From contig OZ244042.1 in assembly GCA_965215015.1 (NCBI GenBank), positions 1,504,001-1,568,000 on the forward strand: DNA of 64,000 nucleotides, written 5' to 3'. Below the pieces are notes generated by a model. That model did no database searches, was not told the DNA's origin, and saw only the letters and a program-made list of their open reading frames with translations. Position 1 is the stretch's first letter. Each line of letters begins with the position of its first letter. The stretch is from Candidatus Poribacteria bacterium (lineage in GTDB: Bacteria; Poribacteria; WGA-4E; PCPOR2b). This document shows, piece by piece, positions 4,674-7,655 of the stretch. The position numbers and the translations under genes were made by a program.

Positions 4674-5352
4674 TCAATCCCTAGCATATGGAGAATTAGG
4701 GTAATGCTCTATCAGTAGTTGTTGCCCTAGTTCTTCGCAAGTTGCCTTGAAATATGGTGTGATACTCTCACTTGATATTCCATGTGTTTCTGCTAAAAAC
4801 TCCCCTAGTGTTTTCATTGAGTTTGCATTGAAATTAACAAAGGGTGTACGACTACCCCGCCGTGTGGCTGTTGGCACTTGGTCGCGGTGGAGTTCTTCCA
4901 CATTCTCAATAAAATCACACAGTAAAAGCTGCTCATGGTAGGCTATATAATTCAGGGGGCAACCCTCACCCCAATAGTATGCAACGCCGCGTAGTTGTCG
5001 AAGGCGTCACGCTCCCACTGTCCAATATCCTGCCACCGAAGTGATTTCCTGTTAGCTTGTCGTGCGATATAATCAATACGGCGTTGGCTGTATATTGGGG
5101 TCTGAGTGCATTTGTATTCTAGCAGATAAACTCTGTCTGGATTCTGAGATTCCACGACAAAAAATCCGGTGCATAACGGACATGACGGGCGGTTTCATTC
5201 CGAACAAAACGAAGGCTCTCCCTGACGTTCTCCGGTATATGTGTCTCATAACCAAACTCAACGTGATATAGAGAGGAAAACTTATCCCAAATACCGCCCT
5301 TTACTGTGTCAATTAAGAGGTTAGCCTTACTCGACCTTTCCTCAAATTTCAT
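4674..5352 (-). pseudogene. PD-(D/E)xK restriction-endonuclease-like gene split by two single-base frameshifts in homopolymer runs
   Basis: ATG at 5352 overlaps the upstream TGA. Adding one base in the A6 run (5159-5164) and one in the G5 run (~4955-4959) joins three ORF pieces and restores APDFFVVES...LLEYK. Confidence 0.7.
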
Positions 5353-5858
5353 AGTCCTGTACCACCTATCATAGTGTTCCGGTTTAGATTGCAAGCAACC
5401 ATATCCCACTGAGCTACTATAACCTGTCGTGGCCTCTTGCCCTTTTCCCAATGGTATTCCAGTACATCACGTCTTTGATAGTCCTGTAACAAAGAAGCAA
5501 GTGTCGAAGAAACTCCCAAAGGAGAAATCAAAAATGAGTAAAGTGGTTGGGCAATTCTACTGTAGCCTAAAAGTTGGGAAAGGTGCGCCGGTGTTAGGCT
5601 GGTGTTCTTACATTCTACAAAAGCTAGAGAAGTAGCTTCCTCTGCATGGTGAACGAATCCAACAATATCAACTCGAATATCCCATGTAACCTGCTCCGCT
5701 GGAAATCTACCCTTGCTATATGTTCTCAAAAAACGGGAAATTGGGGTGTGTGGCAGGTCATAAACATCAACATCAGCATTTCGGAAGCAACTTCTAAGAA
5801 AATCCTCTAACCAGCGGCAAACATCAGGATACATTTCTCCTTCAGATCCATACTTCAT
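5349..5858 (-). CDS. Small PD-(D/E)xK nuclease (E...D-IVG...ECK...QxxGY)
   Basis: SEGEMY helix, IRVDIVGF, FVECK and SQLLGY (QxxxY) motifs as in NucS/Mrr/RecB-type nuclease domains. Confidence 0.7.
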   Translation of the reverse strand: MKYGSEGEMYPDVCRWLEDFLRSCFRNADVDVYDLPHTPISRFLRTYSKGRFPAEQVTWDIRVDIVGFVHHAEEATSLAFVECKNTSLTPAHLSQLLGYSRIAQPLYSFLISPLGVSSTLASLLQDYQRRDVLEYHWEKGKRPRQVIVAQWDMVACNLNRNTMIGGTGL

Positions 5859-6807
5859 CTTCCTCTACTTCCTCCAGTAGGGCTTCATGCTTATTAAAAT
5901 CCCATAACTCTTGTTGCATCATCTCAGGTCTACGAGGGCAACCTAGCTTTTTGCAGATTTGCCAGTAAGCGTTGAAATGTTGTCCTTTTAGGCGGTCGTC
6001 CAGTCTTTCATCGCTTTCCCGTTTATCCTTCGGCTTCCGTTTCCTCAACTGTTTTCTGCCAACACAAGGATTATAAGACTTCTTCGGGTGATGCTCCCTG
6101 TCGTGTTCGATAAATTCTCTCAAGATGGCTTGCTTGTGAGGCAAAGAAAAACCGATTTCTCCGAATGGCACGGCAAAAATGTTAATCTGGTGTTCTCGAA
6201 AGTCCCTTCCCATGTTTGGGTGTCCCCAAGTGATTAGCTGAACGGGTATGGTTAAATGTTCTTCCAGTATCGTACAAAGCTGGACGGGCATTTCCCAATT
6301 TGTCTGATAATTCAGTACATCAAGTCGGACACGATGTGCGCCGTCAACATAGCGGTTCGCGTGTCTGATATTTCCGGCAACATCAGCAAAGCCCCTTATG
6401 TATTCTCGCTTCCAGTCCTTTGGTACTTCTGGAGAAAAGAATATTTCCGGCACTAAAAAATGCTCGTATCCCGTGCGTTCCGCAGTGTGCATTAAGATAT
6501 TCCGCCACACCATTGTATTTCTGAAAAAGCGTAATACGAGAACAACCTTGTTGTCTCTATTTACAACGCTAACATCAGCACCCGTCAAGTCTAAAATGCG
6601 CTCTTGTATCTGTTGTAACCCAAGGAGTATAGAAGTGTTAGTATCAAAAGTCTCGGTTATACCATCTACTGCAAGAGATTGGTAGGGAAACTCAATAATA
6701 ACCTGCCTTGTGCCACCACTTTCTGATATTCTCCCCCTTGCTGTTATCAAACCAAGCAAGTAAGCGACATCAGCGTCAATATAGTCTATAACTTCGATTA
6801 GGCTCAC
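5842..6807 (-). CDS. Double LAGLIDADG-like domain protein with degenerate catalytic motifs and C-terminal Cys/His cluster
   Basis: AYLLGLITARG and EYIRGFADVAG helices ~120 aa apart; C-terminal HF..YWQICKKLGC. Confidence 0.6.
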   Translation of the reverse strand: MSLIEVIDYIDADVAYLLGLITARGRISESGGTRQVIIEFPYQSLAVDGITETFDTNTSILLGLQQIQERILDLTGADVSVVNRDNKVVLVLRFFRNTMVWRNILMHTAERTGYEHFLVPEIFFSPEVPKDWKREYIRGFADVAGNIRHANRYVDGAHRVRLDVLNYQTNWEMPVQLCTILEEHLTIPVQLITWGHPNMGRDFREHQINIFAVPFGEIGFSLPHKQAILREFIEHDREHHPKKSYNPCVGRKQLRKRKPKDKRESDERLDDRLKGQHFNAYWQICKKLGCPRRPEMMQQELWDFNKHEALLEEVEEDEVWI

Positions 6808-6818
6808 TGGATATACTC

Positions 6819-7655
6819 CTACGGCTTTTGAAAAATTAGGATAAATTCATGGATTTTATTGATACGAAACACGCTCGGATAGCCAAGTGGACGCAAGTTA
6901 TTGTATTCCTGTCCTCTATCCCATATAATCATGTCGTCAAAAATAAAGCCAATATCCTCCATGAATCGAGAAATATCCATGTGATATGGGTAAAAGCGAT
7001 TCTTTTTTCGTAAATCCATGACAATGACACAACAGTAGCTTTTGGGCTTCATAACCTCATAGACCTGCTCGAAAATCTTACTAAGTTCTAGCAGGAATTT
7101 TTCATAATCACGAATCTTCCCTAAGTCTGCCTCTGTCTCTCCGTAATCACGCTGTTCCTTATAATCAGCCGTCCGCTTTTCCAGAAGAATATCCCAATAT
7201 GGAGGTGATGTAATCACCATATCCACACTATTTGGAGACACATACTTACACAGTTCTCTACTATCAGCAACATGGACTTTTATATCGGTTGGACCTCCAA
7301 ACGGAATCGTCTGACTAACTCTACCTTCAGCGATTTCGGCAAACTCTGGAGAAATCTCTATCCCTATAGCGTCCTTTCCTAATTCTTTGGCGGCCATGAG
7401 GGTAGAACCAACTCCAACAAAAGGGTCAAATACTAAGCGAGCTTTTTTATTAGTGAAGCATTCTACCAGACGGCAAGCCAACGCACTCGGAAACATAGCA
7501 GGGTGTTTTAAGTCTGTTTCTTCCCGTGTTTTCCTTACATCATTCCAAACTGAGATTGAGTACCTTAACCACGTCTTTCCATCTAATTCATTTCCTCGCT
7601 TGAGTTCAGGTGTTTCCTTTTCCTCCGTACTAGCCGTGATTCTTTTTTTAGGCAT
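6819..7655 (-). CDS. Site-specific DNA amino-methyltransferase (N4-C/N6-A family, SPPY)
   Basis: HPAMFP, DPFVGVGST (motif I), GIEIS, ITSPPY (motif IV), IIWDR, HEFILIFQK. Confidence 0.92.
   Translation of the reverse strand: MPKKRITASTEEKETPELKRGNELDGKTWLRYSISVWNDVRKTREETDLKHPAMFPSALACRLVECFTNKKARLVFDPFVGVGSTLMAAKELGKDAIGIEISPEFAEIAEGRVSQTIPFGGPTDIKVHVADSRELCKYVSPNSVDMVITSPPYWDILLEKRTADYKEQRDYGETEADLGKIRDYEKFLLELSKIFEQVYEVMKPKSYCCVIVMDLRKKNRFYPYHMDISRFMEDIGFIFDDMIIWDRGQEYNNLRPLGYPSVFRINKIHEFILIFQKP

Follow-up and report, generated by a model that had tools for sequence, protein, structure and literature searches.

The window analysed here is a stretch of 64,000 nucleotides from the genome of a Candidatus Poribacteria bacterium (contig OZ244042.1, positions 1,504,001 to 1,568,000), and the coordinates given below refer to it unless another locus is named. 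Between positions 5349 and 7655 it carries three genes, all on the minus strand, which we call the trio:

6819..7655, minus strand: DNA methyltransferase of the SPPY type, 278 amino acids (aa), matching PF01555
5842..6807, minus strand: the middle protein, 321 aa, with a degenerate double LAGLIDADG fold (AlphaFold model and structure search)
5349..5858, minus strand: stand-alone PD-(D/E)xK nuclease, 169 aa (model and invariant residues)

A first-pass annotation of the sequence had described these genes as tightly coupled, and the list of open reading frames (ORFs) reproduced both their coordinates and their spacing, with an 11-bp gap (6808-6818) between the methyltransferase and middle genes and a 17-bp overlap (5842-5858) between the middle and nuclease genes; the motifs quoted in that annotation were likewise all located in the three translations. 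The middle gene (5842-6807, minus strand) starts with GTG, and Shine-Dalgarno-like sequences lie upstream of the starts of the middle gene (AGGAG) and of the nuclease gene (GAGGAAG). Judged by the residues that are invariant across aligned homologues, the features of the trio exceed chance, and the three genes would form one operon encoding a Type II-like restriction-modification (R-M) system.

To describe the middle protein, we used an AlphaFold model built from 36 homologues (pLDDT 81.6, pTM 0.83), which is composed of two LAGLIDADG domains (residues ~12-107 and ~130-239), a C-terminal module containing C248, H277, C285 and C290, and an acidic disordered tail. A Foldseek search with this model gave 133 matches in the Protein Data Bank (PDB) at E<=1e-3, and among the matches listed all are LAGLIDADG endonucleases (free-standing, intein-borne or engineered), LAGLIDADG maturases or WhiA. 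VIA-align returned Z scores of 16.2 for PI-SceI (197 residues aligned, rmsd 4.3), 15.8 for PI-PfuI, 15.6 for I-Tsp061I, 14.5 for WhiA and 14.1 for I-DmoI. Secondary structure, Foldseek matches and VIA Z scores agree on a LAGLIDADG fold, as had been proposed from the two LAGLIDADG-like helices. The sequence itself matches no Pfam, NCBIfam or PADLOC model at E<=0.001: no Pfam family appeared even at E<=0.1, including LAGLIDADG_1, _2 and _3, no WhiA or helix-turn-helix (HTH) family was found in the Pfam scan, NCBIfam gave a single row at chance level (E 0.036), and PDB sequence searches with the protein and with its profile yielded chance-level matches only. Language-model features gave the sole family lead, pointing to clusters where 69-89% of the members carry PF14528. 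The gene was not found in an intron, an intein or a free-standing homing-gene setting; it always lies between methyltransferase and nuclease genes.

Four conserved elements of the middle protein bear on its possible function:

6733..6762, minus strand: first LAGLIDADG-like helix YLLGLITARG (residues 16-25), with R24 at the metal-binding acid position (placed by motif position)
6370..6399, minus strand: second LAGLIDADG-like helix IRGFADVAGN (residues 137-146), with A144 at the metal-binding acid position (placed by motif position)
6187..6228, minus strand: WGHPN...REHQ beta-hairpin of domain 2 (residues 194-207), conserved in the unfused proteins and in the fused and Lactiplantibacillus plantarum forms described below
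5938..6066, minus strand: putative zinc site C248, H277, C285, C290 (invariant residues)

The metal-binding acid of LAGLIDADG enzymes is the penultimate residue of each motif (PMC3384342). In two alignments of middle-protein homologues, position 24 is an arginine throughout (36/36 and 27/27), while position 144 is alanine in 34 and serine in 2 of the 36 sequences, and alanine in 25 and glycine in 2 of the 27. In 20 fused proteins the first acid position holds R, K or H, and A, S, I, V, C or T fill the second. Across all sequences examined (36, 27 and 20), both catalytic positions are free of D and E. Because both metal-binding acids are replaced across these homologues, the fold is very probably inert as a LAGLIDADG nuclease, which bears out the earlier remark that both acidic positions had been lost (to R and A). 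The T. maritima WhiA carries R and G at the corresponding positions (PMC3384342). The residues C248, H277, C285 and C290 are invariant in both alignments (36/36 and 27/27) and fit a putative zinc site, so that the possible zinc site of the first-pass annotation is retained. Also invariant, in the unfused, fused and plasmid forms, are H196, P197, E205, H206, Q207 and D142; the hairpin to which most of them belong reaches a pLDDT of only 60-72, and the model puts it at the edge of the saddle. The mean column identity of the beta-sheets is 0.86 and 0.87 in domain 2, compared with 0.62 and 0.50 in domain 1, and the domain-2 sheets display alternating polar residues (N146, R148, R159, R161, D163, E205 and Q207). 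Overall, conservation of the middle protein equals that of the methyltransferase and exceeds that of the nuclease.

The nuclease model (pLDDT 86) shows a PD-(D/E)xK core, and three conserved motifs were located in the protein:

5658-5672, minus strand: VDIVG (residues 63-67), with the catalytic D64 (placed by motif position)
5607-5618, minus strand: VECK (residues 81-84), providing E82-x-K84 (placed by motif position)
5562-5576, minus strand: QLLGY (residues 95-99), providing Q95xxxY99 (placed by motif position)

D64, E82, K84, Q95 and Y99 are invariant over 27 homologues of 32-73% identity. Both the core fold and the D...(D/E)xK site that define the PD-(D/E)xK superfamily are thus present in a chain of 169 aa with little outside the catalytic core, in keeping with its earlier description as a bare D..ExK..QxxxY nuclease. 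The best Foldseek matches are the Type IIS enzyme PaqCI (4.6e-4) and the modification-dependent enzyme MspJI (1.9e-3), followed by AF1548 (2.8e-3) and then, at 2.2e-2, the small subunit of BspD6I; McrC and BamHI also appear, and the Type IIP enzymes BamHI and EcoRI match weakly (E 0.03-0.06). On the basis of the model the fold class is secure and the closest relative is not, only two matches passing E 1e-3. Like the middle protein, the nuclease has no match in Pfam, NCBIfam or PADLOC at E<=0.001, in support of the novelty that the first-pass annotation expected, and its PDB sequence search gave chance-level matches only.

For the methyltransferase, the Pfam scan matched PF01555 with E 1.2e-34 in two swapped stretches, and the same permutation is visible against 2zie, a solved methylase chain of 297 aa; the match to the PADLOC model MTase_II PDLC03363 is colinear. 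Its two diagnostic motifs are located as follows:

7404-7430, minus strand: motif I, FDPFVGVGS (residues 76-84; placed by motif position)
7197-7208, minus strand: motif IV, SPPY (residues 150-153; placed by motif position)

By this order, with motif I ahead of motif IV, the protein is a circularly permuted member of the N6_N4_Mtase family. It combines an S-adenosylmethionine (AdoMet)-binding motif with the (S/D/N)PP(Y/F) motif, as Type II methyltransferases do, and SPPY is kept in all 43 trio-family and all 62 fused-family methyltransferase homologues. SPPY is typical of N4-cytosine methyltransferases, and in the PDB sequence search the top matches were 2zie (8.7e-29) and then the N4-cytosine methyltransferase 8s9m (1.3e-15); the enzyme is probably an N4-cytosine methyltransferase. 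In a word-index search it had 3265 relatives, against 403 relatives of the middle protein and 188 of the nuclease. Its compactness, to which the first-pass annotation had drawn attention, is real at 278 aa, and is not taken as a need for a helper. Nor is there any sign that the LAGLIDADG-like protein serves the methyltransferase, as had been suggested with a "perhaps": the fused-family methyltransferase gene is convergent, the L. plantarum methyltransferase is unrelated, and the enzyme of the trio is 2zie-related.

In species-representative genomes, a scan found 44 loci, and these come from at least eight phyla (Poribacteria, Chloroflexota, Acidobacteriota, Myxococcota, Gemmatimonadota, Binatia, Armatimonadota, Hydrothermota and others). 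The methyltransferase gene lies directly 5' of the middle gene in 44/44 loci, and the nuclease gene follows 3', in the same order, in 41/44; in the three loci where no nuclease was found, two contigs end inside the middle gene and one middle gene is broken. The trio genes are the only genes that these loci share across phyla. The trio is therefore conserved, which the first-pass annotation had left to a synteny search, and a nuclease with an intact catalytic motif, as expected of a Type II system, is linked to the methyltransferase across unrelated hosts. In the phylum of the window, 22/176 genomes gave a match, 15 of them full-length and four or five of them short remnants or spurious; among the other genomes of its genus the count was 0/19. 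The trio is single-copy in the window's genome and is a recent acquisition there. Decayed copies comprise one nuclease gene with a premature stop and three truncated middle genes (L016, L039 and L041). Such a patchy distribution, together with decayed copies, is typical of R-M systems. Four genomes of the phylum (G085, G090, G110 and G127) also contain short remnants of the middle gene, pointing to repeated decay. Two candidates for a fusion of methyltransferase and middle protein, a 353-aa protein (P0247) and the locus L016, were rejected since they look like deletion remnants, in which the N-terminal half of the methyltransferase continues into the middle protein's C-terminal two thirds. A 491-aa protein of the near-identical family (P0102) was also set aside as a fusion, given that only nuclease residues 52-132 align, and it is probably a frameshift artefact.

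A profile search over 1.84 billion representative proteins gave 363 matches, of which 150 were listed, and among the latter all 20 proteins of 539-557 aa consist of a LAGLIDADG-like module followed by a nuclease domain that matches our nuclease profile (E 2.7e-34 to 7.9e-15). In the fused chain, the module lacks the catalytic acids and contains a zinc-ribbon insert; a linker then leads into the PD-(D/E)xK domain, whose D, E-x-K and Q..Y are invariant in the alignment (28-42% identity to its first sequence). Pfam, NCBIfam and PADLOC gave no match to these fused forms at E<=0.001. The putative recognition module and the cleavage module are encoded by separate genes in the trio and by a single chain in the 539-557-aa forms. 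Because the fusion is consistent across divergent clusters, there is good evidence, drawn from sequence comparison, that the middle protein and the nuclease of the window would act as one enzyme. With regard to the proposal that the LAGLIDADG fold is a specificity subunit, the natural fusions strengthen its link to the nuclease, while DNA binding and specificity are inferred only.

We further fetched 80 metagenome loci with an alignment of the fused form, eight of which turned out to be unfused and trio-type. The usual fused locus consists of the fused gene, an ORF of ~165 aa related to the nuclease, and a convergent, homologous SPPY methyltransferase gene; the latter is present in 65/80 loci, usually convergent, and the remainder are mostly short contigs. 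All 61 small second ORFs match the nuclease profile, with E-x-K lost and only the aspartate kept, and they may encode a pseudo-nuclease partner or harbour a non-canonical active site. In these second ORFs (L047-L109, for example L049:5635-6138) the replacement of E-x-K is of the FLNRE type.

A third architecture comprises proteins of 905-1299 aa (P0290, P0293, P0294, P0297, P0335, P0370 and P0375) with the module, a degenerate LAGLIDADG domain with HPN/EHQ, at the C-terminus. The 580-1000 residues ahead of it gave no match in Pfam, NCBIfam or PADLOC. On the bolder reading taken up below, this position would suggest a portable targeting domain that is reused in several nuclease or defence architectures. 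Each source name returned reads "hypothetical protein", whether for the middle protein, the nuclease or a fused form, and archaeal (Nanoarchaeota) members are no exception.

A different partner was found on two small L. plantarum plasmids, where homologues of the middle protein and the nuclease are paired with another methyltransferase:

NZ_CP060181.1, 690-4316 (L127): L. plantarum system, plasmid p9
NZ_CP141333.1, 3041-6667 (L128): L. plantarum system, plasmid

The pair lies directly 3' of a gene for a single 700-aa chain, in which an EcoRI-type adenine methylase is fused to a C5-cytosine methylase (m6A+m5C). In the middle homologue (292 aa) the acid positions are N and T, the GHPN...EHQ hairpin is retained, and the C248/H277/C285/C290-type site is lost; the nuclease homologue (168 aa) has the canonical D..ExK, and both proteins are labelled hypothetical in RefSeq. 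An exchangeable methyltransferase partner is a signature of restriction enzymes. Double methyltransferases accompany asymmetric Type IIS sites, and the m6A+m5C enzyme is the only hint of an asymmetric site in our data. The plasmid systems adjoin a YafQ-type toxin-antitoxin pair. Since their host is a harmless lactic acid bacterium that is cultivable and tractable, these copies make the hypothesis directly testable.

Taken together, we consider the trio to be a Type II-like R-M system with a two-subunit restriction enzyme, composed of a dead LAGLIDADG targeting module and a PD-(D/E)xK cutter, and we assign this reading a probability of roughly 0.65. The SPPY methyltransferase would mark the host's own sites, probably as N4-methylcytosine. 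The 321-aa LAGLIDADG-fold protein would bind DNA as the recognition or targeting module, probably mainly via the highly conserved beta-sheet of domain 2 and aided by the Cys/His module, and would recruit or position the 169-aa nuclease, which has an intact active site and no recognition domain and would do the cutting. The logic would resemble that of FokI-type or heteromeric Type IIS/IIT enzymes. The data show the folds, the state of the motifs, the linkage, the natural fusions and the exchange of methyltransferases, whereas DNA binding by the module, contact of the two unfused subunits, the modified base, the cut position and a role in phage defence are what we infer from them. Of the overall interpretation in the first-pass annotation, the fold, the dead acids, the conserved trio and the nuclease link stand, and the service to the methyltransferase and the claim of a new type are unsupported or overstated: a "new R-M type" is too strong, and what we see is better described as a new Type II architecture (IIS/IIT-like).

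Several observations weigh against this interpretation. In 13-15 other Poribacteria the trio is located between cytochrome c maturation and pyruvate:ferredoxin oxidoreductase genes, with no defence island, and a scan of viral contigs with the middle-protein alignment gave no relative. The beta-sheet of domain 1 is poorly conserved, and the second nuclease ORF of the fused family, lacking E-x-K, leaves the mode of two-strand cutting unexplained. Contact between the unfused subunits would have to be deduced from the fusions only. Furthermore, the monomeric LAGLIDADG fold suggests an asymmetric site, which one small methyltransferase would need to protect. Finally, the LAGLIDADG domain of WhiA may not bind DNA according to passages of a 2012 review (PMC3384342), and the fold alone is no proof of recognition.

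In a different division of labour, the middle protein would be a transcriptional controller, similar to C proteins or WhiA, and the nuclease would form the homodimer of a conventional Type IIP enzyme. In favour of this, WhiA is a regulator with a LAGLIDADG fold whose acid positions hold R and G, and its structure matches the middle protein strongly (Z 14.5); the nuclease model has its weak matches to the Type IIP enzymes BamHI and EcoRI (E 0.03-0.06). What speaks most strongly against a controller are the fusions, since joining the module to the nuclease in 20/20 of the listed 539-557-aa proteins is unexpected for a regulator; moreover, the Pfam scan found neither an HTH domain nor a WhiA family match, the nuclease has little outside its catalytic core, and the middle protein is conserved like the methyltransferase and more than the nuclease. 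We therefore regard this explanation as improbable. Similarly low odds apply to the idea that the middle protein is itself catalytic via a non-canonical site (for example WGHPN...REHQ or D142/D163/E205) and nicks one strand while the nuclease cuts the other. The invariance of H196, P197, E205, H206, Q207 and D142 in all three forms would fit such a site, as would the loss of E-x-K from the second ORF, which leaves one canonical site per fused chain, and the heteromeric BtsI and BsrDI use a non-canonical site to cut one of the strands. Yet both canonical LAGLIDADG acids are absent from every sequence examined, the hairpin is peripheral and modelled at a pLDDT of 60-72, and the family-model and PDB sequence and profile searches detected no known nuclease motif in the middle protein. 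If the PD-(D/E)xK domain dimerises, as the FokI cleavage domain does, both strands would also be cut with no need for another type of site.

It also seems unlikely to us that the trio serves mainly something other than phage defence, be it as a selfish addiction or mobility cassette or in a chromosomal epigenetic or repair function. Such a role would account for its constant place between housekeeping genes in 13-15 Poribacteria genomes, for the lack of relatives in the viral contigs scanned, and for small plasmids that carry the L. plantarum version beside a toxin-antitoxin pair. However, the combination of methyltransferase and nuclease, the exchangeable methyltransferases, the patchiness and the decay form the classical R-M pattern, addiction and defence are compatible in R-M systems, and the trio of the window lies in a 7.8-kb island with genes for a ThsB-type TIR protein, a PLD-HEAT protein and an IS630-family transposase. 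Returning to the two-subunit restriction enzyme, a bolder extension would be a widespread bacterial and archaeal family of natural meganuclease-guided, rare-cutting Type IIS-like enzymes, in which the dead saddle reads a long or asymmetric site and delivers a generic PD-(D/E)xK cutter, and which would bring the LAGLIDADG fold into restriction-modification for the first time; this we offer as a speculation that is rather doubtful.

Among known systems, the closest analogy is an engineered one, namely non-cleaving I-SceI fused to the FokI cleavage domain, as reported by Lippow et al. 2009 (PMC2685105). There an inactive LAGLIDADG protein reads the DNA and a separate nuclease domain cuts, as we would propose by analogy for the trio, and the natural 539-557-aa fusions show the same module order. 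A second chimera, MutH fused to I-SceI, reportedly takes its PD-(D/E)xK cutter from MutH. In contrast to these constructs, the trio is natural, comes with a methyltransferase and is split into two polypeptides in the window; its LAGLIDADG protein contains the extra Cys/His module, and the fused forms contain a zinc-ribbon insert. The site read by I-SceI is 18 bp long. Among natural restriction enzymes, BspD6I (a large nickase plus a 186-aa small subunit, PDB 2p14) likewise has a small PD-(D/E)xK subunit without a recognition domain, and the structural match to 2p14 is weak (E 2.2e-2). BtsI and BsrDI are heteromeric as well, with a small PD-(D/E)xK subunit and a larger DNA-recognising subunit, a layout paralleled by the large chain and small non-canonical subunit of the fused family. 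The large subunits of these three enzymes are catalytic, whereas the putative recognition subunit of the trio has a LAGLIDADG fold without a nuclease site, and no sequence relationship to them was found in Pfam, NCBIfam, PADLOC or PDB sequence searches.

WhiA/DUF199 shares with the middle protein a monomeric double LAGLIDADG fold with replaced acids (R/G in WhiA, R/A here), and its surface corresponding to domain 1, the less conserved domain here, is described as negatively charged. It differs in that the middle protein has a C-terminal Cys/His region and an acidic tail and is linked to a nuclease and a methyltransferase. PI-SceI, I-DmoI, I-Tsp061I and the LAGLIDADG maturases have the same fold (Z 14-16), and the maturases show that it can lose cleavage activity; unlike the active endonucleases, the protein of the trio lacks the catalytic acids, the intron or intein context and a Pfam LAGLIDADG match. 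Restriction endonucleases are known with PD-(D/E)xK, HNH, GIY-YIG, PLD and half-pipe folds. Pfam, NCBIfam and PADLOC (E<=0.001) hold no described restriction-enzyme family to which the middle protein, its nuclease partner or the fused chains could be assigned, and a search of full-text literature, whose coverage did not extend to subscription journals and REBASE, gave no description of a natural LAGLIDADG-fold R-M component. As host relatives of LAGLIDADG enzymes, passages of the 2012 review name only maturases, HO and WhiA (PMC3384342). If our interpretation is correct, the trio would show that a dead LAGLIDADG fold was domesticated a second time independently, closing the last gap between the fold repertoires of homing endonucleases and restriction enzymes. 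It would also be the natural counterpart of the solution that engineers found with inactive I-SceI and FokI, and a natural, evolvable scaffold of meganuclease-type reader and detachable cutter for enzyme discovery and nuclease engineering, in a large family of 363 representative clusters from many phyla.

The surroundings of the trio contain the following features:

293-3500 and 11338-14496: two copies of a 3.2-kb direct repeat, each with a DUF1611 gene and a YhgA-like (Transposase_31) gene
3507-4013, minus strand: 168-aa ORF without a family match, overlapping the TIR gene
3977-4537, minus strand: ThsB-type TIR protein (PF08937, E 8e-19)
5164..5181, minus strand: terminator-like hairpin ~170 bp 3' of the nuclease stop codon (consensus match only)
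7723..7752, minus strand: promoter-like site ATGATA-18-TATAAT with an upstream TG, ~70 bp 5' of the methyltransferase start (consensus match only)
8088-10202, minus strand: 704-aa protein combining a PLD nuclease domain (DrmC/NgoFVII-like) at the N-terminus with HEAT repeats at the C-terminus, directly upstream of the trio
10486-11269, plus strand: IS630-family transposase in two ORFs (HTH_Tnp_IS630, then DDE_3), at the right island edge

Two promoter-like consensus sites were seen where 5.6 are expected by chance, leaving their functional meaning unsupported. The repeats, which are 95.4% identical, bracket the 7.8-kb segment in which the trio lies, and this arrangement resembles either a scar left by recombination or an insertion that duplicated its target. 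The TIR gene and the 168-aa ORF may form a two-gene defence module in the same island, and the IS630-family transposase, split as it is, is probably frameshifted or broken. The PLD-HEAT gene is not conserved beside the trio elsewhere; in other Poribacteria a 202-aa HEAT-repeat gene occupies the corresponding position. The YhgA-like gene in each repeat copy contains a variable GRVEGKRE repeat, and the left repeat ends with a truncated copy (2679-3284) of the C-terminus of an 845-aa CARDB protein (13675-16212).

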